Shown here in pieces: positions 43,635-59,874 of a DNA stretch of 64,000 nucleotides. The stretch is from the NCBI GenBank assembly GCA_000004985.1, contig GG738923.1; one strand, given 5' to 3'. The notes beneath the pieces were generated by a model that was given only the letters and a program-made list of their open reading frames with translations, was not told the origin of the DNA and did no database searches. Position 1 is the first letter of the stretch. Each line of letters starts with the position of its first letter. A program made the translations under genes and the position numbers. The DNA is from Naegleria gruberi (Eukaryota).

Positions 43635-44297
43635 ATGCAACGAGTATTCATTCCCTTCATTGTTGGTTTGTTCTGTTTATTTGTAACTATTCGAAAGGTT
43701 TCTGGAAACAATTCAAACTTTGAGAATTATTCGAAAGTTGAAGATGTAAAACTTCCATTGAATTGTAGTACTAGCATGTCAGTTGTGTTTCCAACTGAAT
43801 TGTTATTGCAATCTTTCTTACATGAAAAACATTCGAATAGCAACTTTACTTCTCTTTGGATAAATTTCATGATCGCCTCGAAAAGGGAAGGAATCGAATT
43901 GGCAGAATTTGGATTAAACTCTCAAAATTCGAATCAAGAATTTCTCTCCTTAATGCAAGAAATGAAAAATAACGCAACCGAAACCAAAACTAAACTAGAA
44001 GAATTACTTTTCACTCTAAATTTACCTACAATGAATGAAATGCAAGCACTAGTCTATGGAAACGATTGTTCTCTAAGGGCAGTTCCATTAGATTCCATTC
44101 GAGGTCCATGCGATTTACTCTTCATTTCAATTCATCGTATGTCCATGACCAAAACCATGAATCTTATGGTTATGGCATTGAACGGAGTTGACCAAAGAGT
44201 TGTTTCGATTGCTTACAATGAATTGATTACTTCTTCAAAAACAATTGGTAAACTTTTGCAGTTATCCAAAAGTTTACAATGTTATCAAACTTTGTAA
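43635..44297 (+). CDS. Secreted 4-Cys protein, paralogue A of a tandem pair. Novel family.
   Basis: Signal peptide MQRVFIPFIVGLFCLFVTI. Shares a conserved core with the next gene: KLPLNCSTSMSVVFP, NDCSLRA, RGPCD, IAYNEL. Confidence 0.5.
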   Translation: MQRVFIPFIVGLFCLFVTIRKVSGNNSNFENYSKVEDVKLPLNCSTSMSVVFPTELLLQSFLHEKHSNSNFTSLWINFMIASKREGIELAEFGLNSQNSNQEFLSLMQEMKNNATETKTKLEELLFTLNLPTMNEMQALVYGNDCSLRAVPLDSIRGPCDLLFISIHRMSMTKTMNLMVMALNGVDQRVVSIAYNELITSSKTIGKLLQLSKSLQCYQTL

Positions 44298-44457: not shown

Positions 44458-45147
44458 TTGCTATTCGAAACACACAAGAAAATGAAAATAATTCTCATTG
44501 CAACCTGTCTCCTTCTTGGAGCCATCCTTGTTTCCTGCCAGCAACAACAACAACAAGGTACTGATCAAACAAGCTCAACCTCTTCCAATCAATCCAACGA
44601 TATCAAACTTCCATTGAATTGCAGCACCAGCATGTCAGTAGTCTTTCCAGCAGAAATAATTCTACAAGCCTATCTTGAAAGTGACACTGCCAATGTTACA
44701 GCTCTTTGGCTCAATATCATGCTAGCTTCCCAAAAACAAGGTGCCTCACTCACTCAATCAGCCATTTCCAAATATTCCTCCAATTCTCAATTAGTTTCAC
44801 TTTTACAAGAATTGAATGCAAACATGACTCAAATGGAACAACAACTTTCTGGATTATTCTCATCTTTGCAATTGCAACAATTACCTGACATTCAAAATCT
44901 TACCTATGGTGATGATTGTTCATTGAGAGCTGCTACAGTTGATAATTTGAGAGGTCCATGTGATTTTATATTTGTCTTGATTCATAGAATGGCAATGGCA
45001 AAGGTTGTTAACTTGTTGGCCATTTCTGAAGGTGATATTAATCAACAAGTTGGTGATATTGCTTACAATGAATTGGTCAATTCATCCAATACTATTGAAA
45101 AATTATTGCAAATTGCAAAGGCATCCAATTGCTATGCCCAACAATAA
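44458..45147 (+). CDS. Secreted 4-Cys protein, paralogue B of the tandem pair.
   Basis: Signal peptide MKIILIATCLLLGAILVSC. About 40-45% identical to 43635..44297, with the four Cys conserved. Confidence 0.5.
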   Translation: MLFETHKKMKIILIATCLLLGAILVSCQQQQQQGTDQTSSTSSNQSNDIKLPLNCSTSMSVVFPAEIILQAYLESDTANVTALWLNIMLASQKQGASLTQSAISKYSSNSQLVSLLQELNANMTQMEQQLSGLFSSLQLQQLPDIQNLTYGDDCSLRAATVDNLRGPCDFIFVLIHRMAMAKVVNLLAISEGDINQQVGDIAYNELVNSSNTIEKLLQIAKASNCYAQQ

Positions 45148-47119: not shown

Positions 47120-48028
47120 TTACTTCAAAAAGAGTTGACTATTCTTTTCAACATATTGTTCAAAGGTCAATAAACCAGGGAATAATTCTCTTGCTTCTTT
47201 AACAGCTTGTTGCTCATTATCTTGATAATAGCCACATTCATTAAAGTACATGAACATATTCTTTGCTTCAGAACCCATTCTTTGACCAACAGTTTCGGCA
47301 TCCATTGCAACGTATTGAGTTGGGACATTTAATACTGTAGTGCAAATATCAGCCATTTCCTTAAGGGATACATAATCACCAGCAGTAAGGAGCTTTCTTC
47401 CATTGTAATTTTCTGGATGCTTGAATACTTCAGAAACAACAATTCCCAAATCATCAACTCCAAATACTGGAAGTTTTCTGTCAGTATTCACACCAGCAAA
47501 GATCATGGCACTAGCTCTGTCTTCATTCAATCTGAACATCATTCCAGGAAGATTGTCAGCGAAAAATGGTGGGTAAACAAAAGTCTTGAATGGAATGTTG
47601 GTCTTTCTTGCTTCTTGCTCAACCTTATTCTTGTTAGTGAAATGAGGAACTGAAATTTTACCACCAGATGCCTTAGTGACATCATCCAATGAACTGAAAA
47701 CAAAATGTTGAACATTATTCTTAACAGCTGCTTCAACCAAATTCAATCCTTCGGTCAATTCCTTTTCATGATCAACTGAACCAAATCTTCCTGGAGTTGT
47801 TACACCAAAAACACCATAAGCACCTTTGAATGCCTCTGCAAGAGCTTCCTTATTACTCATATTGCATGAAACAATTTCAACACCTTGTTCGGCAAGTTCT
47901 TTGGCTCTGGCTGAGTTGGAATCTCTGGTAATTCCTCTCAATTTCCAATTGCCTTGCTTTTGAAGATGCTTAATGACACTTCCTCCTTGTTTTCCAGTAG
48001 CTCCAATGACAACAATTAATTTACTCAT
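47120..48028 (-). CDS. NmrA-like NAD(P)-binding protein (atypical SDR).
   Basis: The N-terminal Rossmann motif is MSKLIVVIGATGKQGGSV. Its length and profile are typical of the NmrA/HSCARG family. Confidence 0.65.
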   Translation of the reverse strand: MSKLIVVIGATGKQGGSVIKHLQKQGNWKLRGITRDSNSARAKELAEQGVEIVSCNMSNKEALAEAFKGAYGVFGVTTPGRFGSVDHEKELTEGLNLVEAAVKNNVQHFVFSSLDDVTKASGGKISVPHFTNKNKVEQEARKTNIPFKTFVYPPFFADNLPGMMFRLNEDRASAMIFAGVNTDRKLPVFGVDDLGIVVSEVFKHPENYNGRKLLTAGDYVSLKEMADICTTVLNVPTQYVAMDAETVGQRMGSEAKNMFMYFNECGYYQDNEQQAVKEARELFPGLLTFEQYVEKNSQLFLK

Positions 48029-48394: not shown

Positions 48395-48877
48395 TTATTT
48401 CTTAACTGACTTTTTGGTGTAAACTGGCTTTCTAACCTTATTTTGTGTCTTGTTTTGTTTTCTCTTCAAAGACAAGTCTTTTAACTTTCTTCTGAGATCA
48501 CTGTGCTCTCTATCAGGTGCACAAGCAGCACTCTTGTCTCTGTTATAACATTTACACTTGTTATTACCAACACATCTTCCTCTTCCATAACAGACATTCT
48601 TATCGGTGGATTTCTTTCCGTAACAAGTGAAAACTTCTTCCTTCTTTGGCTTCTTTAAACCAGTAGCTCTACATCTTTTTGGTTCGCTCAATTCTGGGGC
48701 AAAACATTCACACTTGTTATTGCCAACACATTTTCCTCTACGAGAACAGACACCCTTATCAGTGGATTTCAAACCGAAACATGTGAAAACTGGTTCCTCA
48801 GCACTAACAACATTGCAAGCAATGACACCGAGAATGGCTACAAGAACGACAATAAGCAAGCTCTTTCCAAAGAACAT
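48395..48877 (-). CDS. Small basic secreted protein made of two EGF-like/cysteine-knot repeats.
   Basis: Signal peptide, followed by an internal duplication: EPVFTCFGLKSTDKGVCSRRGKCVGNNKCECF and EEVFTCYGKKSTDKNVCYGRGRCVGNNKCKCY. It has a lysine-rich C-terminus. Confidence 0.5.
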   Translation of the reverse strand: MFFGKSLLIVVLVAILGVIACNVVSAEEPVFTCFGLKSTDKGVCSRRGKCVGNNKCECFAPELSEPKRCRATGLKKPKKEEVFTCYGKKSTDKNVCYGRGRCVGNNKCKCYNRDKSAACAPDREHSDLRRKLKDLSLKRKQNKTQNKVRKPVYTKKSVKK

Positions 48878-49812
48878 TTTGAAGAAGTTGTTTTGTTTTT
48901 TTAAAATGATGATGAGAGATGCAACTCTGTCTCCCTCATGAATTTAAAGCTTTTTCAATGTGAGTCATTCACATGACCATTTAAGAGCTTACTGTTTTCA
49001 CATCCATAGAGATATTGAAGGTGGTAAAGAGTAATGAGGGCGACCAGCTGATTTGCATATGAACTGTTGGGTCTACTGGAAGGGTAGAAACAATTTTTAA
49101 CAGAAGCTGTAATATGTTCATGGACAAAAATGATTTTCAGTACGGGGTCGTATCAATACAGAACATAATACTGCTAAATGGTTTACAGTTTTCCCATTTT
49201 GGGGATTCCCGCCCTCTATCTCTGTTAGAAACTTTCACAATCAGTGACCTTATCATTGATTTGGAATGTGTTAGGATGGCAAACATTAAGCAAAATCTCT
49301 TTTCAACACACATGTAACGCCATGATGAAGCTGCATTACATGATGATTCAGAAATTACGCAATTTAAGAAAAAAATCTAATGATGAGGAAGAAGACATAT
49401 AATGTTGGATGTGCATATGATGTTGGTGAGGATACATATGGAAATGAATATTGAAAGTGATAGAACTATCAAGATATTTGAATGATGATTCATGTATTTT
49501 CGAATCGTGAAATATTCCAGTACTTTGATGAGATGTTGCACTAACGAACCAAAGGTAATCAAGTTTAGTAATCAAAATTTTCAATTTGGAAAATTGCATC
49601 TGATGAATTCCTAAAAATAACTTGTTTAAAAAACTTGGAGTATTCAGGAAATAGAATAATTTTCAAAATCTTTTGGAATTTGGTTGGAAGATTTTCTTAG
49701 ATTGCCTTTTTGGTGTTAAAGATTGGAAACAAAGATATCAAACCCATTCAAATTGAGTAGAAAATTGTTTGATCACGAATGGAATTGGAAATTGAAAGGT
49801 ATTTCACAGATG

Positions 49813-49870
49813 GGGTGGCCTTACCACGATGAATACACCTCAACCAGTCCAACTTAAAATCAACAACGAA
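49813..49870 (+). pseudogene. Truncated, degenerate copy of the 5' half of the 5S rRNA.
   Basis: gatggggtggccttaccacgatgaatacacctcaaccagtccaacttaaaatcaac against the intact copy gatggctacggccatatcacgatgaatgcacctcatcccgtccgatttgagaagttaag. Confidence 0.5.
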
Positions 49871-50275
49871 GGATATTGTACATAATACTGAAGCACCACA
49901 AATTAGGTTACCAAGTTGAAAAAGATGTAAATTAACTTCAATTCAGTAAATAATTCAAAGATGAAGTTTCAATTTCGAATTGATAAGAAAATGAGAAACC
50001 AAAATTTGCACCAAGCTATTGAACATGTCTAATGTTCAATAAATATGAGGTTGATCAACCTTATCAATTTCTTCAACAAAACCTTACTGAACCAACAAGA
50101 TTCTGTCTTCGTTGCCTTCACTGTTCATACAGTCAAAGACTGTAGCGGGATTGTCGCCATATTCCTGGCAGGCTTCCCGTCCAAAATACTAATTGAAATC
50201 AGTGTCATTAATATTTAACAACAAATTACAACCTGTAACTTTTAAGTTATTATACTAAGAATTTAGATTACAGAT

Positions 50276-50394
50276 GGCTACGGCCATATCACGATGAATG
50301 CACCTCATCCCGTCCGATTTGAGAAGTTAAGCATCGTCGAGCCACATCAGTACTGAGGTTGGAGACAACTTGGGAACCTGTGGTGCTGTAGTCT
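50276..50394 (+). rRNA. rrn5: 5S ribosomal RNA.
   Basis: GGCTACGGCCATATCACGATGAATGCACC...GGGAACCTGTGGTGCTGTAGTC has the eukaryotic 5S consensus blocks: GCCATAC-like, GTTAAGC, AGTACT, GGGA.CC.GGTGCTGTAG. The 5' and 3' ends pair, and a T5 Pol III terminator follows. Confidence 0.85.
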
Positions 50395-50447
50395 TTTTGT
50401 CTTAAATACTCTCTGGTTTATGTATTGAACAACTGGCAAAAGGAACT

Positions 50448-50520
50448 CTCCCCCTGGTGGGCTCGAACCACCGACCTGCAGATTAACAGTCTGACGCTCT
50501 ACCGACTGAGCTAAGGGGGA
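50448..50520 (-). tRNA. tRNA-Asn (GTT).
   Basis: The reverse complement TCCCCCTTAGCTCAGTCGGTAGAGCGTCAGACTGTTAATCTGCAGGTCGGTGGTTCGAGCCCACCAGGGGGAG folds as a cloverleaf with anticodon loop cuGUUaa. Confidence 0.85.
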
Positions 50521-50617
50521 TCACATCAATTAATTGCACAAATTTTCTATTAAAATCGGTTGCAACCTGCATTGCCACAAATGGTTTTATTCTTTGGTGA
50601 AAAATTCAATCAAAAAA

Positions 50618-51541
50618 ATGACTGCTCTCAGAAAATTCATTCGCTCCTATCCCTACACTCAAGAACAAAAAGCTTCACTCATCAATTACTTTTCCAATTT
50701 TCTAAAGGAAGGAAGAGTCTCCATGATGAAGGATGTTCTTGATAAGAGAACAAGATTTATCATTCCGGTTCTTGAAGATGTTCAATCATCACAAAATGTT
50801 TCTGCCATCATTAGAACTGTTGAATGTTTCGGAATGAATGATTTACATATTATTTCAAATCCAGACTCGATGAGTGATAAAAAAGGAATTTCTAAAGGAG
50901 TTGCAAAAGGAGCAACAGATTGGATCAATATTAAGCAATATCAAAATTCGGATGAATGTTTTAAAGAATTAAAAGAAAAGCATAATTGTAGAATTATTGT
51001 TACTTCACCATATTCGATACCACAATTAGTTCTTGGACAGAAGAGAAATTCATGGAGAGAGGATCAACATCCATCTGTTTATAATAATTTGAGAGATGAA
51101 ATTACGGAAAGACATGTTAGAGTTCCTCACTATATTGGAATTGAAAATGTTCCTATTGATTTATTGAATTCAGACAATGATTATGATAAGCCAATTGCTG
51201 TTGTTTTTGGAAATGAATCACATGGAATTTCCAATTCAGCAATTGACCATGCAGATGCTTCTCTTACCATTCCTCTGTATGGTTTTACTGAAAGTTTCAA
51301 TGTTCATGTGAGCACAGCCCTCACCACCTATTATCTCAATGAAAAGTTTAGAAATTATCTCAAGAATAGTGAAACTAAATCATTAGCTGAAAAGTACATG
51401 CTCTCTCCAGAGGAAAAGAATAATACACTTGTTGAATGGATGAGAGAGTGTGTTTCACTGGGTGATGAAGTTGAATTGTCGTTTATGAGAAATAATGGAA
51501 TTTCAATTCCAACTCATTTCTCTTCGGCTCATCAATCCTAA
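50618..51541 (+). CDS. SpoU/TrmH-family (SPOUT) RNA 2'-O-methyltransferase.
   Basis: SPOUT motifs: IPVLEDVQSSQNVSAIIRTVECFG, VVFGNESHGIS, and LTIPLYGFTESFNVHVSTAL (motif 3). The start is at MTALRKF. Confidence 0.7.
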   Translation: MTALRKFIRSYPYTQEQKASLINYFSNFLKEGRVSMMKDVLDKRTRFIIPVLEDVQSSQNVSAIIRTVECFGMNDLHIISNPDSMSDKKGISKGVAKGATDWINIKQYQNSDECFKELKEKHNCRIIVTSPYSIPQLVLGQKRNSWREDQHPSVYNNLRDEITERHVRVPHYIGIENVPIDLLNSDNDYDKPIAVVFGNESHGISNSAIDHADASLTIPLYGFTESFNVHVSTALTTYYLNEKFRNYLKNSETKSLAEKYMLSPEEKNNTLVEWMRECVSLGDEVELSFMRNNGISIPTHFSSAHQS

Positions 51542-51969
51542 GTTTTAATATTCATTTAAAATATTAAATACATTCCATTGTTTGAATATTCCTTTCGTCT
51601 TAATATGAAGCCATGACAACAATTTAAGTAGTGGCTGTTTCCTATTGAATGCAATCACTTGGACTTTCCAATAACGTCATATTGAAAAAAGAGATCAATT
51701 CATCTCTTAAAAACCATCTACAGTTCATTGAGGTGGTTGTTAATTGACGGTTGGACAATAATAAACCTCAATAACAGTCGATTAAAATCAATATCATCAA
51801 ATTTTTGAAAGGTAATGACAAAACCTCCTTAATCATGAGTCCTTCAATACCAAAGTACTTATTACTGTAATTTCTATCATCAATTTCAAAAAAAAGCAAC
51901 AACTTCGTAAACGTTCTTGTTTGTCCTTGCATTTCTAAATAAAATCTTTGTAATAGTAAAATTTGCGGA

Positions 51970-54152
51970 ATGAGAAGGGAAGAATACAAACTTCATTCAA
52001 ATAACTTTACAAATACTTTATTGGATACTTTGAAAGATGTTATTCCATCATCCTCATCGACCAATAAGAGTTCGGATTTGAGAAGACTCAACGATGTATG
52101 GGCATCCAAATTGAGGTCAACAAGAATTGTAGAAGCAAGTATTTTCAAACAGTAAGTTGAATTTCAAATTGAAAATACAATAATCTCTATTTTAGCTTGC
52201 ATTCTGAATTGGCCAGTCTACCATTTGTGAGTCCTCTCACTCAGCAACATACCAACAAATGTAAAAGTTTCCTCTCTGAAACTCAAACCTCATTCACTAA
52301 TGAAACTTTTTACTTGGGCAGATTATTAGAATTTAGAAAATTGCCACATTTGAAAGATCTTAGAGAAGCAAGTGGTAGAAAGCTATCAACTCCAACAAAA
52401 CCAAGCTCTGACGATTCAGGTCAAGATATGTTCGAAACATTGATTCAATCCTTTGAGGCAGCCGAGCTCTATTCAAAACAAGCAAAAGTAATGACCAATG
52501 ATCAATTGGAAAAGCAAATCAGATATTTCACCTCTCTCATTTCAAAATATGTCAAGACACCAGAAGAGAAGGACAAGCTCAATAATTTAATTCATTCACC
52601 TTCAACAAATGACGTTCAATCTCCAAAAGATACCAGAAATGTGTTCAATGATGTAAATAGAGTACCAGTGTCGAGTAGTTGCCCTTCTCTTGGACCTAAT
52701 AATCGAGTTCACCTAAGTTTAATTCCCCAACTGTCCGAATTATCAATCAATACAATGAGTCCAACAAAATCCAAACAAGTATTTGAGCCTTACTTCCACT
52801 CTAAAGAATTGAAATTATCAGTTGCTGGTGAAAATAGTAAGAATGTATTGGAATTCAAGACTCATTTGAGGAGAGTTATATACCAGTGCTTTAGTGATTT
52901 GGCCTCATCCTATGGAAAGGAGAAGGAAAATGTTGATGATGTGAGATCTTTGGGAGTTCTCTTTGATAGAAATAGAGTCTATCTATTTGAATTCATTCTC
53001 ACAAGAAAATTCATCTCCAACACTAATTCCAACTCTAATAACTCTCAATCGTTACCAACCATTCTAATTGATGCTGTTGGAGTGAATTATACCAATGGTG
53101 GACAAGGAATGGCCCTCATCTTTACCACTCTCTTGCAATATCTTCGTGAGGGATGGAAAATGTTTAAGGAAACATCAGATCCTCTCCATCTGCTTCATCT
53201 CTCCCTCCTAAAGTTTGTCTATCAACAAGCAAAGAGGGAAATTACAACATCAAGCAGTAGCAATTTGAGTAATAATAGTATGATTGCCACTTCCTTACAC
53301 TCTAAATCCACTTCAGATTTGAGTAGTGTGATTGTCAGTTCGGAACCACAGGTTTTGTCTCCATCCTACTCTCCAACAACATTGAATACATCTATAGGAA
53401 GTTTGTTATTCTCTGCTATCAATACAAGTAGTAGTAGCAGCAACAATAGCACCATCAGTCCAGTGAGAAGTAATGCCTTTACATCTGATACTGACATTTC
53501 CTCACCACCTTCACCATTAATGACTGGCCGAATCAATCAAACCACACTCAGTGATAATGCCTTCCTCACTTGTTCTCATGTAAATTCCAATTCTCTCGAT
53601 TTGAGTAATATTTCCTCTCCTCCACCATCCGTTCCACAACATTATGATTTGGGAGTGGCACAAAACTTTGGCTCTCCAACCAATTGTAAATCATCAGCAC
53701 TCTCTGCCGAGCAACAAAGAGCCATCAATTCTATTGCCATTGTTTCGAGAACAGCCTCTACCAAGACTAGTATGCTCCAAGGTCAGAGCAATAGTACTGG
53801 TAATTTGTTCTCCTCACCACCAAATCATCATGTAAATAATAATAATGGTAATTTACCATCACCAAAGAGAATGTTATTTTCAGTTGGTGGTAATCTCTCC
53901 TCTGGCTCTGCATCAACTTCCAGTCTTCCAATTCATTCTAGTGGTGGTGGTAATGCTTCAACAAAGGGAATGAGGCTTCTCCAACGTTCAAAGGCCATTC
54001 TCTCCGATGCTACCAATTTTAATTATTTTGATAAGTTCAAGAATGTTGTATCTCCAGGAGGAACGAATAAGGAGCAAACATCCAGTGGTAGTAACAATGT
54101 GGGAGGTGGTATTAGAGGATTGATGAAGGGAAGAAAACCTCTCATTGAATAA
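51970..54152 (+). CDS. Unknown Ser-rich protein. Two exons, with an intron at about 52153..52196.
   Basis: ORF 51970..52155 ends at a gtaagt..ttttag intron and joins ORF 52197..54152. There are no recognisable domains. Long S/N-rich tracts. Confidence 0.4.
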
Positions 54153-54406
54153 ATTCTCTTTCAATAGAAAATAAATTCCAACAATTTACTATCTAGATGT
54201 ACTTTGAAGATGATCGTGTATATTATCATGATGTTGTTGAATATAACTTGTTGGTGTCTTTGAATATTGTTTTTATTGTACATCTCTAGAAGAATTCTTT
54301 CATCAGCTGGTTTGTTGCTCAAAAATATTCCATTGTAATGTGTACCAGCTACCCACTCAACCCAAATTAATATTGTTTTTCGAAAAAAAAAGTCATAACA
54401 ATCAAT

Positions 54407-54739
54407 ATGGTATGTCATCTCATTTTTTACTAGCAGCCTTTTAACCTGTAACCTTCTATTATCAACAACTCTCACCAACAATTTTCAACACTTGACTAAT
54501 GATTGTGATAACACTACTTTTGCTAACTACAATAGGACGGTGAAAATCAACCAACCTTGGTCAAGGTCGTTAAATGCCTCGGTAGAACTGGTTCTCGTGG
54601 TGGTATTACCCAAGTCAGAGTCGACTTCATCAACACTGACAAGCCAAGATCCATTATCAGAAACGTTAAGGGTCCAGTCAAAGAAGGTGACATCCTCGCT
54701 TTGCTCGAAACTGAAAGAGAAGCCAGAAGATTGAGATAA
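54407..54739 (+). CDS. rps28: 40S ribosomal protein S28e. The first exon is the ATG alone: join(54407..54409,54536..54739).
   Basis: The ATG is immediately followed by gtatgt. After acceptor ..caatag the frame reads [67 protein letters not shown], which is colinear with eS28 ([25 protein letters not shown]...[10 protein letters not shown]). Confidence 0.8.
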
Positions 54740-54874
54740 ATCTTTTCCCTAAATAAAATCTTTAAATTTCATAAAACATTTTTCCTATTGTCTATGTAAT
54801 ATTACGTGAGTAAAATTAGTGATAATTGATTAAACTTTTATTAATAGGCAACAAATACATTCGATAAAAGATAG

Positions 54875-55933
54875 GTGGTTTCGCTCCTCCAAATTTGTTC
54901 CCGAAAAATGTCCCAACTATTAATTAGCAAAGCTACATACGTTTGTAGAGCCAAACTAAACCAGCCTCAAGAACGTTCTGTTATTGAGCTGCAAACCTTT
55001 CCACATTTTCTCTTTAGCTTTGAAAACAATTTTTCTTCTCTAAAAACCATTAGGGTGAAACATTCCTTCACTATGAATAGAAGAGAGTTTGCTGAAAAAT
55101 TACGACCCTTACTGGTGTTCTGTGAGTTTTCTGAATTTGAAGAGACATACTATGATGAGGCTTTCAATAATTTAATGAGAAACAACTGTTGGATAAAGAA
55201 GGTAAAGAGAGAAAATGAGAGTTTTTACTCCATCAAATGCACTGAGGTAAATCCTCCACCATCTGACAATTCGAATGAGCCACATACAATAATTTATCCA
55301 GAGGTAATACTTTCCAGTAATCAAGAGGGAGGCGATAATTGGTCAAATGATGAACTAGTGCTTTATGGCATGTTGCAAATTTATTGTAACTTACCAGAGC
55401 AAGAAAGATATGAGCTAAAAATCCATCGAACAAAATTCAAATTCAAAAACAACCCCAATATTATGCTCAACTTGGATAGAGTAACATTCAAAGATGGAAA
55501 TGGGTGTGTTATTTATTCCATATATGGTGATACACCTTGTAGATTTTTCGAAAAAGGTATCTCAAGTGCAATTATTAGCCAAAAGAAACAATTCTCTTTT
55601 GGGGATGATATGAAACCTTGTCGAAGCAAAATCATCCAATACCTCTATGGAACTGAAAGTTTAAGGCCAGTTTATTCTCATTTACAAGAAAAAGGATATG
55701 TACTATCTTTGGACTATGTAACAATTTCATTATTCGAATACGAGGCACAAAGAATAAGACACAAGTGGGAAGAGTTCAATAAGAAATTCCCAAACGAAAA
55801 AAAGTCAGAGGAATTTATTAAATTTATGGAAGCAGCAGCTTTGGTTGGAAGAGCATCCATCACATATGAAGATGACGATGGAAATGAGAATCCTTACTAT
55901 TCAGATGATGAAGAGGAAGAAGAAAATTGTTGA
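54875..55933 (+). CDS. Unknown protein with an acidic C-terminus.
   Basis: 352-aa ORF, no recognised motif, ends DDEEEEENC. Confidence 0.35.
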   Translation: MVSLLQICSRKMSQLLISKATYVCRAKLNQPQERSVIELQTFPHFLFSFENNFSSLKTIRVKHSFTMNRREFAEKLRPLLVFCEFSEFEETYYDEAFNNLMRNNCWIKKVKRENESFYSIKCTEVNPPPSDNSNEPHTIIYPEVILSSNQEGGDNWSNDELVLYGMLQIYCNLPEQERYELKIHRTKFKFKNNPNIMLNLDRVTFKDGNGCVIYSIYGDTPCRFFEKGISSAIISQKKQFSFGDDMKPCRSKIIQYLYGTESLRPVYSHLQEKGYVLSLDYVTISLFEYEAQRIRHKWEEFNKKFPNEKKSEEFIKFMEAAALVGRASITYEDDDGNENPYYSDDEEEEENC

Positions 55934-56184
55934 GAAAAAACTCTGTAAATTTTGCACATTTAATCATCAACATGTACATACACATGCAAATTAGATATAA
56001 CCTTTAACATCAATTTAAACAAATTACTTGAGACTGGCTCTTTAACGATTGAAGATGATCACTCTGAGAGCTATGTTTTTCATCAAATATTACTAATAAA
56101 TTGACTCATTTGGATCTGATCTGTCCTTATTAACCCTCCGTTAGATTTATATACGTGAAATATTTATTTTCAAAATGAGTGTAA

Positions 56185-56258
56185 GCCGTCATAGCTCAGT
56201 TGGATAGAGCACAGGACTTCTAATCCTGGGGTCGTGGGTTCGAGCCCCATTGTCGGTA
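56185..56258 (+). tRNA. tRNA-Arg (TCT).
   Basis: GCCGTCATAGCTCAGTTGGATAGAGCACAGGACTTCTAATCCTGGGGTCGTGGGTTCGAGCCCCATTGTCGGTA has anticodon loop cuUCUaa, a TTCGAGC T-loop, and one U-U mismatch in the acceptor stem. A T-run lies downstream. Confidence 0.8.
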
Positions 56259-56346
56259 AATCTGTTTATTTTGTTTCACATTTGAAATTAATACTGGTGC
56301 GCTTGTTGCATTTAATAAATTTTATTAATTTTTCAATCATTTAACG

Positions 56347-57696
56347 TCAGTCAGGTCTGATAAATCCTAAAGCGAACTCTGATCTATTAGATATTGGATA
56401 AGCGACACAATGCCCTTCCTGAATAATTTGTTTAAAATTTTGCATTGTTTCTGCCCTAAAGACATGCTTTTTACATTTTGTACAAAATCTCTTTTCATCA
56501 GCATAGTCAATTCGTTCCAATTCAGAATATTTCATAGGGCACTCGAAAATCCATTCACAATTTTCTATAAATGATTCTTGTTTTTTTACAGAAAAGGATG
56601 GTTTAGGAATTTTAAATTTTTCATCTGTTTTTGGATCTATTGTTCTCAAAATTTCTCTCACAAGTGGTAAACTTGTTGGTGAATGAATTTGTAAATGTTG
56701 AATTCTTCGTTTCATAACAATCATCCAATTTTTCACATTCAAACTCTGTTGAAATCGTGGGAAATAGAACAACACCATTGGTTTCCAAATTGTATTTTGA
56801 ATCAAATCAACATGATACTCGTCTGGATTCTTTTTGAAATGTTCCTCATCGAGAAATGATCGATACATGCCTTTGAAGGTCATTGACAAGTAGAACAACT
56901 CCTTGAGTGTTAGATAGGAAGCAACTATGGCAGTAACTTCAATTATTGTCTCTCCATTTCTAAATAAAATTCCAATATCTTTGTAAACATTTGGCGTATT
57001 TTCAATAATTGATATTACAATATTATTATCTTCAGTCAATTCAGCTGAATCTGCAAATCCACATTTAAAACTTCTCAAATGTTGGTAATCTGAAATAATT
57101 TCTCCATTTAATACATTTGCCAATTTCTCCAAATCTTGTCTGCTAATTCCTTCTTGGTAAATTATCCCAAATTTATCAAATAATTTTGAAACTAGTTGTT
57201 CATTTTCAAATAGAGAAATAACCATCTTACATCCCATCTCATTAATGATTTTTCCTATTGTAATATTATTTCTTCTTTGTTCTCTAATAGCAGCATCTAT
57301 TGCTGTATAATCCGATCCATAAATCTCCAATGAGGTTAAGGTTGGGAATTTAAAGTCAATTAATGCAACTGACACTTTTTCAATTCGTTTTCGTTTCGTA
57401 TTTGAAGACTTGTTTCTATTAACAATTTCAATTTGATTACAAAAAGTTGTTTTGAAAGAACTGGTTGCATAGAAAAACTTCAATTCATAACTTGGAACAC
57501 TAGTTTCTAATAGATGAATATTGACATTCCCATTTGATGATGTTATTTCAATGGATTGAATTTCTTCTTTAAAGTTGAACAACTCAATCAATTTTCTCTT
57601 CAATTCTTGAAACTTGTCAGGATCTACGCTGATAACACCTGGTGGTTGATCTTTTTCCATTTTTTTTAAATCTATTTCGGAAGAATTACCGATCAA
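56347..57696 (-). CDS. Unknown protein. Its start is probably at the internal Met.
   Basis: 449-aa ORF. It overlaps the upstream gene's stop by 11 nt unless an internal Met is used. Confidence 0.35.
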   Translation of the reverse strand: MIGNSSEIDLKKMEKDQPPGVISVDPDKFQELKRKLIELFNFKEEIQSIEITSSNGNVNIHLLETSVPSYELKFFYATSSFKTTFCNQIEIVNRNKSSNTKRKRIEKVSVALIDFKFPTLTSLEIYGSDYTAIDAAIREQRRNNITIGKIINEMGCKMVISLFENEQLVSKLFDKFGIIYQEGISRQDLEKLANVLNGEIISDYQHLRSFKCGFADSAELTEDNNIVISIIENTPNVYKDIGILFRNGETIIEVTAIVASYLTLKELFYLSMTFKGMYRSFLDEEHFKKNPDEYHVDLIQNTIWKPMVLFYFPRFQQSLNVKNWMIVMKRRIQHLQIHSPTSLPLVREILRTIDPKTDEKFKIPKPSFSVKKQESFIENCEWIFECPMKYSELERIDYADEKRFCTKCKKHVFRAETMQNFKQIIQEGHCVAYPISNRSEFALGFIRPD

Positions 57697-59155
57697 ATAC
57701 TTGTTTTTTCTTTTTTGAAAATGAGAGAGTTTGTTGGCCTCTATCTAATCTTTTTAAATTGGAGTTGTTTTCTTTCCTTTTGTGCACCATTTTTGGAAAA
57801 TCAACCAAGTTTACCAATTGGTCATTCATTTTCCACTTATTAATATATTTCTCAATCTTTTCATTCTCATAGTCAAGTTTAAAAACTAAGGATCTAATGG
57901 TGTTTGATAATTGTGAAGACGCAATGTGGTCTATTGCACGGAGTGAGAACATTTCACTTTTAAAAGAAAGCTGTTCAAGTTTTTTCAAATAAGTGCAATT
58001 ACTAAGATATTCAATAGATAGATCAGTTACACTAGTTGACGATATATTTAAATAAGTGAGAGGGGATTCTCTTTCCAAATTTTCAACAAATCCTTTTGTA
58101 CTCTGGTCATCCAACATTGTTTCACTTACTTCTATTGATAAATATGTTAAATTTTTCAAATATTTTGCAATGGATTGAAGAGCATTCTTTGGAGAGTTAA
58201 TAAACAACTGAAGATGTGTCAAATTTGTTGAGAGACGACCTGAAAACATTTCATTCAAATCATCGAGAGTAAAATTAATCCCATGTAAACCTTTTTGTAT
58301 AGATATACTGGTCAAGCTTGTCAAATGTATACTTGTTCCTAACAATTTCATAGAATTCAAATCACTTGATGAAATATGATTCAATTTGATTTTTTCCACG
58401 TTTGACATATTCTCTGTATCAATATCTTTCAAATTTACCTTTCCATATCTTATTGATATTTCCTTCAGTTCTTTCATTTGCGTTATCAGCTTGAAACATT
58501 CTGGTGTGGTGTTTGCTACAGACATTTGTTGTAAATGTTTCATATTTTCATAAATTATTTGCATTTGTTCATAGTCTATTGTATTGAATACAGAAAACAC
58601 CTTCAATTTCCCCAATAATGGATTGCTAGCTACCTTTCCAATTCCACTCTTTGTAATATCAGACCAAATTGTCAATTTCTCCAGATTTCCAATATAAGGA
58701 CAAGCACTAATTGCCAAAGCAACATTATAATCGCACCCAACAACTTGATATCCTAAAAGAAACAAACTCAATTCGGTCAATTGCTCCAACTCTTTACATT
58801 TGAATAATTGACACAATTCATTAGAATAGTTCATTTGTGATTTTCTAGATTCAATTTTTAAAACTTTCAAGCTTTTCATCTCTGATAAATTCTCACAAAA
58901 TTCCACCACACATGATTCATCTTCAACGAGAAAAGAAAGTGATTGAATATTTTTCAATATGAATGATGATGATCGGAATAAAGAAACAAGAATTGAATCT
59001 CTGATTTGGATCATGTCATACAATTTACATTTAATCACCTCGGATCGCCATAGCTTGGACACCATTGAACAATTGATAATTATTTGTTTCCATGGGAGAA
59101 ATTGCATTATTTGAAAGCAAACATCTGCTGGAATGAACACCTCTTGTTGTGTCAT
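57686..59155 (-). CDS. F-box-like plus leucine-rich-repeat protein.
   Basis: The N-terminus IPADVCFQIMQFLPWKQIIINCSMVSKLWR is F-box-like. Multiple LRRs follow (LTHLQL, LTSLTSISI, LKELKEISI). Confidence 0.5.
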   Translation of the reverse strand: MTQQEVFIPADVCFQIMQFLPWKQIIINCSMVSKLWRSEVIKCKLYDMIQIRDSILVSLFRSSSFILKNIQSLSFLVEDESCVVEFCENLSEMKSLKVLKIESRKSQMNYSNELCQLFKCKELEQLTELSLFLLGYQVVGCDYNVALAISACPYIGNLEKLTIWSDITKSGIGKVASNPLLGKLKVFSVFNTIDYEQMQIIYENMKHLQQMSVANTTPECFKLITQMKELKEISIRYGKVNLKDIDTENMSNVEKIKLNHISSSDLNSMKLLGTSIHLTSLTSISIQKGLHGINFTLDDLNEMFSGRLSTNLTHLQLFINSPKNALQSIAKYLKNLTYLSIEVSETMLDDQSTKGFVENLERESPLTYLNISSTSVTDLSIEYLSNCTYLKKLEQLSFKSEMFSLRAIDHIASSQLSNTIRSLVFKLDYENEKIEKYINKWKMNDQLVNLVDFPKMVHKRKENNSNLKRLDRGQQTLSFSKKKKQVFDR

Positions 59156-59253
59156 TTTTTAAAGATAATTTTCTCAGTTTACAAAGGAATGATCTGATAT
59201 TTCAGACTTTAAAGAAAATTAAAAAGAGAACATCAGTACTTGTAAGCTAAAAT

Positions 59254-59344
59254 TGATGAGTGTGGGATTTGAACCCACGCCCTTGCGGAACACGGTATTA
59301 ATCATACCTTAACGTGTCGTCTTAGACCACTCGACCAACTCACC
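59254..59344 (-). tRNA. tRNA-Leu (AAG) with a roughly 12-nt intron 3' of the anticodon.
   Basis: The reverse complement is GGTGAGTTGGTCGAGTGGTCTAAGACGACACGTTAAGG[tatgattaata]CCGTGTTCCGCAAGGGCGTGGGTTCAAATCCCACACTCATCA. It has a long variable arm (CGCAAGGGCG), a seven-pair acceptor stem with one G-U, and a canonical intron position 37/38. Confidence 0.65.
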
Positions 59345-59427
59345 ATCTGAAAATTAATACACTGTTCTGATTTTAGGAAACATCTGAGTTATTGGCGATA
59401 AATACAAATTCGAACAATAAAAAGATT

Positions 59428-59501
59428 TACCGACAATGGGGCTCGAACCCACGACCCCAGGATTAGAAGTCCTGTGCTCTATCCAACTGAGCTATGACGG
59501 C
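59428..59501 (-). tRNA. tRNA-Arg (TCT), the second, inverted copy.
   Basis: Exact reverse complement of the 56185..56258 gene. Flank similarity extends about 20 nt on each side. Confidence 0.8.
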
Positions 59502-59874
59502 TTACGTTCGTGGTGAAAAATAAATGTTTCTTTTTGATATTGTACATAGGAAGTTTCTAAGAATTCCTTAATATTATGAACTCTCAATGACCATCTCTCA
59601 GGAAAGATGAGTACGTGAATTTTCAACAGCAGTAACATGAAGCATCATATGAGTAGCTTCAAATTACGACAAAGCAATTATTATCCCGGAGTATCTTGTC
59701 TCCGTAACAATCATCATTAACATTGTGGACCATTGGTTCTGGATGATATTTGAAATAACCATCTTGTGGAGAAAAGATAATGAAAGGTACAAAAAAGGAA
59801 TGAATTCGGAAGGATAGCTACAATTCATTCTCTCCAACAATTTTGTGAATCATTGTTTTGAACTTTAATAAAAA

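Follow-up and report, generated by a model that had tools for sequence, protein, structure and literature searches.

A dispersed chromosomal 5S rRNA gene of Naegleria gruberi with a convergent tRNA-Asn gene and an apparent upstream 5S relic

The 64-kb stretch of DNA analyzed here (the window) carries a real but ordinary chromosomal 5S rRNA gene of Naegleria gruberi (Table 1). The best overall explanation of the locus, to which we assign a probability of about 85%, is a dispersed Pol III 5S gene that lies next to a convergent tRNA-Asn gene and is preceded by what appears to be the dead relic of another 5S copy. At the curated thresholds of Rfam, the window contains five RNA genes, namely, this one 5S gene and four tRNA genes.

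Table 1. Coordinates of the features discussed in the text.
Feature	Position	Strand	Basis or remark
NmrA-like ORF	47120..48028	-	100% identical, full length, to XP_002669755.1, "predicted protein [Naegleria gruberi]"
EGF-like gene	48395..48877	-	left flank of the gene-poor interval
Apparent relic of 5S gene	49806..49856	+	6 nt of 5′ flank (ACAGAT) plus 5S nt 1-45; 40/51 identical
Possible inverted 5S 3′-end piece (nt 91-120)	49884..49918	-	repeats I4, I7; 27 nt from the relic
TATA-like TATTATA, putative promoter element	50248..50254	+	-28..-22 of the 5S gene; from sequence
Full-length nuclear 5S rRNA gene	50276..50394	+	Rfam RF00001
Box A-like AGTTAAGC	nt 51-58 of the 5S gene	+	by eye
Box C-like GAGGTTGGAGACAACTTG	nt 80-97 of the 5S gene	+	by eye
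T5 run, Pol III terminator of the 5S gene	50394..50398	+	sequence
T4 run, Pol III terminator of tRNA-Asn	50438..50441	-	6 nt past the tRNA 3′ end
tRNA-Asn(GTT) gene, convergent with 5S	50448..50520	-	Rfam RF00005, 67.9 bits; ARAGORN
tRNA-Asn A box TAGCTCAGTCGG, B box GGTTCGAGCCC	within 50448..50520	-	read off the Rfam alignment
SpoU ORF	50618..51541	+	100% identical to XP_002669708.1, "spoU protein [Naegleria gruberi]"
tRNA-Arg(TCT)	56185..56258	+	Rfam, ARAGORN
Intron-containing tRNA	59254..59344 (Rfam; ~59253..59345)	-	left unnamed by ARAGORN
tRNA-Arg(TCT)	59428..59501	-	Rfam, ARAGORN; identical to the (+) copy

The initial annotation had placed a 5S gene with a T5 terminator at this position and had proposed a search with RF00001 as a check. 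The search bore out this assignment: the gene scored 105.4 bits where the gathering score is 38 (E ~4e-22; 4.4e-22), and the alignment covered the model completely from position 1 to position 120, with zero pairs flagged as non-canonical. Furthermore, when the gene sequence was folded alone, it produced the canonical Y-shaped three-helix junction, in which helix I closes the 5′ and 3′ ends and helices II/III and IV/V form the two arms. The MFE fold was the same as the centroid, with an energy of −41.5 kcal/mol and a z-score of −2.61 compared with shuffled sequences. The gene also has the anatomy of a Pol III unit, an internal control region together with an oligo-T terminator. The box A-like and box C-like motifs of this region show two mismatches to the consensus quoted in PMC3369914, and the TATTATA motif upstream is, judging from its sequence and position, a putative promoter element.

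The tRNA-Asn gene lies tail to tail with the 5S gene. ARAGORN placed the anticodon GTT at position 34, and the gene combines a score with the cloverleaf model, A and B boxes, and a terminator; the reverse complement of 50437..50447 reads AGTTCCTTTTG, which contains the T4 run. The convergent tRNA-Asn(GTT) had thus been called correctly before, and both Rfam and ARAGORN agree on it, but the spacer between the two genes is 53 nt (50395..50447) and not 54 bp. A scan of the window for bacterial-type promoters and terminators was uninformative for Pol III genes.

How might the two genes be transcribed? The 5S rRNA of the organism is supplied by a few hundred separate chromosomal Pol III genes, of which 50276..50394 is one. 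Transcription would be of Pol III type 1, directed by the internal control region (nt 51–58 and 80–97), probably with the assistance of the TATA-like element at about −25, and would end at the T5 run. The tRNA-Asn would behave as a type-2 gene with A and B boxes, be transcribed toward the 5S gene, and stop at its own T4 run. Because each unit would end at its own T-run while facing the other, the two Pol III units would share the 53-bp spacer as a common terminator region. How the internal 5S promoter is read is uncertain, because no recognizable TFIIIA was found in the N. gruberi genome (PMC3369914).

The other three tRNA genes lie downstream. All five Pol III genes fall within 9.2 kb (50276..59501), and Rfam found none in the other 55 kb of the window, which is a modest, post hoc sign of local clustering. 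The two tRNA-Arg(TCT) genes form a 104-nt inverted repeat (56167..56270 and 59416..59519) that is 94% complementary, flanks included; its arms are 3,145 nt apart, and between them are genes for a protein of 449 aa and for a 489-aa LRR-like protein. The intron-containing tRNA at 59253..59345 (−) is located 83 nt downstream of the second tRNA-Arg gene. By eye, it can be read as a tRNA-Leu(AAG) that has a long variable arm and is interrupted after position 37 by an 11-nt intron.

Dispersed 5S genes are well documented in this organism. Feng et al. (2012, PLoS One 7:e36878; PMC3369914) reported 279 putative 5S genes in N. gruberi, which are not located with the rDNA units and which have an internal control region and an upstream TATA box. 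The gene described here resembles theirs in every respect that we compared: the organism is the same, the length is ~117–119 nt, a TATA-like box, an internal control region and a T-run terminator are present, and linkage to the rDNA is absent. Although the text of that paper speaks of a "tandem" arrangement, its own table consists mostly of dispersed copies; the entries in Table S1 are spread over ~100 scaffolds and are usually tens of kb apart, with occasional neighbors at 0.5–3 kb. The suggestion in the initial annotation that the 5S genes of this lineage are Pol III units dispersed in the genome is therefore right, as the 279 scattered copies attest, and because dispersed chromosomal 5S genes were published for N. 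gruberi in 2012, the finding is not noteworthy in itself.

The locus is very probably in that table. On scaffold_54, Table S1 lists a 99-nt entry with a similarity of 0.67 (R32335, 275852–275950), followed by a 117-nt entry (R33454, 276314–276430). The spacing of this pair is 462 bp, compared with 464 bp for the relic and the gene in the window, and the order is the same. From this spacing, we infer that the 5S gene and its degenerate neighbor were already tabulated as the scaffold_54 pair. The remaining scaffold_54 entries would lie outside the window, in agreement with the single RF00001 match found here. The 2012 paper does not mention a tRNA neighbor and does not analyze degenerate copies.

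The other rRNA genes of Naegleria are kept elsewhere. The 18S, 5.8S and 28S genes reside on a circular extrachromosomal element, the CERE, which is present in thousands of copies (PMC5805870). The element carries only these three, whereas the 5S gene described here sits between ordinary chromosomal protein genes; the CERE thus explains the physical separation of 5S from the other rRNA genes. Judging by this chromosomal 5S gene and the 279 published copies, the location on the CERE (PMC5805870, PMC10586121) is true of 18S, 5.8S and 28S only.

Upstream of the gene lies a second stretch of 5S similarity. When the whole window was searched with the 5S gene and its flanks, one extra significant match was returned, at 49806..49856 (blastn E 3.8e-6; nhmmer E 5.8e-5). 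It is 78% identical to the gene over 5S positions −6 to +45, and its local score of 28 compares with a control maximum of 16; none of 20,000 random genomic segments reached 28. The nhmmer alignment extends weakly to −13, and 9 of the 13 flank positions are identical to the 5′ flank of the 5S gene. The initial annotation had recognized a degenerate 5′ half of a 5S upstream of the gene, which stands, but it gave the extent as 49813..49870 and the distance as about 400 bp; the significant span is the one found here, and the measured spacing between relic and gene is 464 bp.

The similarity of this fragment to 5S exceeds chance at the level of sequence and disappears at the level of structure, where 49806..49918 gained no structure-aware 5S score. 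Searching 48800..50700 with RF00001 at E values up to 10 returned no match besides the full 5S gene, and the relic region folds no better than shuffled sequences on either strand (z = +1.15 and +0.84). The relic also has neither the internal control region (nt ~50–97) nor a T-run terminator. Because internal promoter, terminator, fold and Rfam score are all missing, we interpret 49806..49856 as a dead relic of a 5S gene and not as a gene.

Beyond 5S nt 45, the identity of the collinear alignment falls abruptly from 78% to ~22% (~5/23). The remaining collinear part, nt 46–119 of 5S (74 nt) compared with the sequence from 49857 onward, does not align above the level of random genomic DNA (p = 0.40 for local and 0.41 for semi-global alignment), which indicates that the relic is truncated rather than evenly decayed. 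Further downstream, 49884..49918 matches 5S nt 91–120 on the opposite strand with 26 of 30 positions identical, a 5-nt insertion and a local score of 16. Within the 204-nt neighborhood searched on both strands, this corresponds to p = 0.0015 against shuffles and p = 0.009 against genomic controls. The match is suggestive of a piece that may belong to the same rearranged relic, with the caveat that helix IV/V of 5S is self-complementary. Another 5S-like scrap that had been noticed by eye at ~50140..50195 (GCCATAT...CCCGTCC) was recovered by neither blastn nor nhmmer, and we regard it as a chance resemblance.

Could the upstream copy instead be a 5S pseudogene that is still collinear over its full length and has merely decayed, a view that the published 99-nt entry would suggest? 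A short patch, ACAT-AATACTGA, matches 5S nt 69–81 at 11 of 13 positions and at the exact collinear offset, and MAFFT strings weak matches together over the full length. The abrupt loss of identity after nt 45 and the random-like score of the remainder speak against such a pseudogene, as does the inverted alignment of 49884..49918, which scores 16 compared with 8–9 for any collinear alignment. Even decay over the full length is, on balance, unlikely.

It is much less probable that 49806..49918 belongs to a repeated element derived from 5S or encodes a functional small RNA of 5S type, perhaps corresponding to the published "R32xxx" entries. Table S1 of PMC3369914 does contain ~15 short (80–112 nt), low-similarity 5S-like entries, and two of them, R32334 and R32335, are nearly equal in length and score and are both on scaffold_54. 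Against both readings, a second copy is absent from the window and from the ~148 kb of loci that we fetched, and the segment has no fold better than shuffled sequences on either strand, no internal control region, no T-run and no Rfam score.

The initial annotation had left the choice between an aborted duplication and a retro-copy. A retro-copy, that is, an RNA-mediated copy of 5S rRNA, would have precedents in the 5S retro-pseudogenes and 5S-derived SINEs of other eukaryotes, although such precedents are not specific to this case. The similarity takes in 6–13 nt of sequence that precedes the mature 5′ end, and the 5′ part is kept while the 3′ part is missing; target-primed reverse transcription usually truncates copies at the other end. 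The fragment is followed by only an A4 run, and flanking direct repeats were not found; it thus has none of the marks of a retro-copy or SINE-like element, namely, a retained 3′ end, an A-rich tail and target-site duplications. We consider an RNA-mediated origin very improbable indeed. Because the 5′ flank is shared, the 3′ part is lost, and neither an A-tail nor a target-site duplication is present, duplication at the DNA level is favored, and this part of the earlier proposal fits the evidence.

In the preferred reading, the relic would descend from a second 5S copy that arose by duplication at the DNA level and was then truncated or rearranged, so that the 5′ flank and nt 1–45 are left, possibly followed by an inverted scrap of the 5S 3′ end. 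The shared flank, on the other hand, may not prove that a copy was duplicated locally and may reflect a start-site motif of Pol III genes in general, because AGAT also precedes the 5S gene of a metagenomic contig (L008) and the tRNA-Leu at 59345.

The tetranucleotide AGAT stands directly upstream of the mature 5′ end in the 5S gene (50272..50275), in the relic (49808..49811), in the tRNA-Leu (59346..59349, −) and in the L008 5S gene, and the tRNA-Asn has GAT directly upstream of its mature 5′ end. AGAT may be a shared Pol III start-site element or context in Naegleria.

The interval that contains the relic and leads up to the 5S gene is poor in genes. In agreement with the initial annotation, which saw no convincing ORF in 48900..50270, the longest ORFs there encode 67–83 aa, and none has a Pfam match above the cut-off. 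No Rfam family matched in this interval at E < 0.5; the weaker matches (mir-2363, snR33 and others; E 0.5–8) are far under their gathering scores and represent noise. Except for its similarity to 5S, no part of the interval recurs in the rest of the window or in the fetched loci, which total ~148 kb.

The genes on either side identify the organism. Three of the proteins that the window encodes (NmrA-like, SpoU and EGF-like) each match a N. gruberi protein with 100% identity, and the next best protein matches are from N. fowleri and N. lovaniensis at 59–63%. Because of these three identities, the window is chromosomal DNA of Naegleria gruberi (Heterolobosea, Discoba) and not of a dictyostelid. 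Two further observations concern the protein genes of the window. Outside Naegleria, the nearest relatives of the SpoU/TrmH-type methyltransferase (50618..51541, +) are bacterial, namely, Bacteroidota TrmH proteins (~30–34% identity, ~220–240 aa), which hints that the gene is perhaps bacterial in origin and has acquired a eukaryote-specific extension. Two tandem paralogous ORFs (43635..44297 and 44458..45147, +) encode proteins of 220 and 229 aa with signal-peptide-like N-termini, and they have motifs such as KLPLNCSTSMSVVFP and DCSLRA...LRGPCD in common.

The initial annotation had taken the genome for dictyostelid-like and, on that basis, had considered a dispersed 5S next to a tRNA noteworthy. 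In spite of the GC content of ~34%, the dictyostelid-looking homopolymer N/S/Q tracts of some proteins and the string GGTTGGAGACAAC that the 5S gene presumably shares with D. discoideum 5S, the three protein identities and the dispersed chromosomal 5S genes already documented in N. gruberi leave practically no chance that this is a dictyostelid-like genome whose tRNA-linked chromosomal 5S departs from the rDNA palindrome arrangement of Dictyostelium. In Dictyostelium discoideum (Amoebozoa), the 5S gene is located on the extrachromosomal rDNA palindrome, whereas N. gruberi (Discoba) has dispersed 5S genes on its chromosomes; extrachromosomal elements carry the large rRNA genes in both organisms. 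Since the organism is N. gruberi, the comparison with the palindrome does not apply, and with it the claim to special interest lapses: in N. gruberi, this arrangement is unremarkable.

Is the neighborhood of the 5S gene conserved in other Naegleria species? To the right, the order SpoU, a protein of ~650–740 aa, and ribosomal protein S28e is kept in N. fowleri (L017, L018) and N. lovaniensis (L019); a further contig, L020, matches SpoU and the next gene only and then ends. To the left, SpoU is preceded in N. fowleri and N. lovaniensis, at a distance of ~230 bp, by a DNA ligase gene in divergent orientation, whereas L020 has an uncharacterized 506-aa gene on the same strand ~95 bp upstream. The DNA ligase gene was not found in the 64-kb window, and neither a 5S nor a tRNA gene is present anywhere in the fetched SpoU loci of N. 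fowleri, N. lovaniensis and L020. The NmrA orthologue of N. lovaniensis lies on a different contig from its SpoU locus. The NmrA-orthologue loci of N. lovaniensis and two relatives (L001–L003), which are not syntenic with the interval, contain no 5S gene, and the search for orthologues of the EGF-like gene returned only the N. gruberi protein itself. The 5S/tRNA-Asn interval (48878..50617) coincides with a synteny breakpoint and is specific to the N. gruberi lineage.

Within the species complex, the tRNA-Asn side of the arrangement recurs. A metagenomic strain contig (L021), 97.4% identical to the window, begins inside the tRNA-Asn gene directly upstream of SpoU, short of the 5S gene, so the adjacency of tRNA-Asn and SpoU is shared within the species complex. 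Another contig (L022) matches the NmrA gene only, at 88%.

Do Pol III genes mark the sites of chromosome rearrangement in Naegleria? The idea arises because the 5S/tRNA-Asn interval lies at a synteny break and because the 5′ piece of the relic has behind it an apparent 3′ piece in inverted orientation, the pattern expected if an inversion or a fold-back event had broken a 5S copy. We consider it doubtful that Pol III genes would mark such sites in general, and the accompanying idea of an AGAT start-site element is weaker still.

The pairing of a 5S gene with a tRNA gene also raises the question of whether the two are linked more widely. Metagenome contigs were scanned with a 27-mer from the 5S gene, which yielded 13 contigs of 1–6.8 kb, all with a 5S gene. 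A tRNA gene was found on none of these 13 contigs, among which L008 alone clearly resembles N. gruberi. These data lend no support to a regular 5S–tRNA linkage in this lineage. The L008 5S gene differs by 1 nt from the one described here, and its flank is unrelated save for AGAT at −4..−1 and a TATA-like motif, TTATAG at about −23..−18. Runs of T3–T4 follow all full-length 5S copies in L004–L015.

The other 12 contigs (VFQM/VFQO; L004–L007, L009–L015) come from one or two metagenomes and have a 5S variant of their own (GGGTACGGTCATCTTG...), which has the 27-mer core of loop C/helix III in common with Naegleria. Each copy has a unique flank, and there are no tRNA genes; in L011, the variant occupies a 400-bp gap between long intronless ORFs. 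It looks like the 5S of another protist with dispersed 5S genes.

Mixed Pol III clusters are known elsewhere, such as the tRNA/snRNA/7SL clusters of trypanosomatids and the tRNA-5S dicistronic genes of Yarrowia lipolytica. The likeness to these systems consists in the closeness of 5S to tRNA genes. Unlike in those clusters, the 5S and tRNA-Asn genes of N. gruberi are convergent, each with its own promoter elements and terminator; there would be no co-transcription, and neither gene would rely on the boxes of its neighbor.

The importance of the 5S gene itself is small, as it belongs to a multicopy housekeeping family, and the copy number, dispersal and promoter features of this family in N. 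gruberi were published in 2012. For the family as a whole, some degenerate entries of the published 5S catalogue are relics that have been truncated or rearranged, and these are not to be counted as genes. For the organism, the small point of value is that this Pol III pair lies at a synteny breakpoint between Naegleria species.
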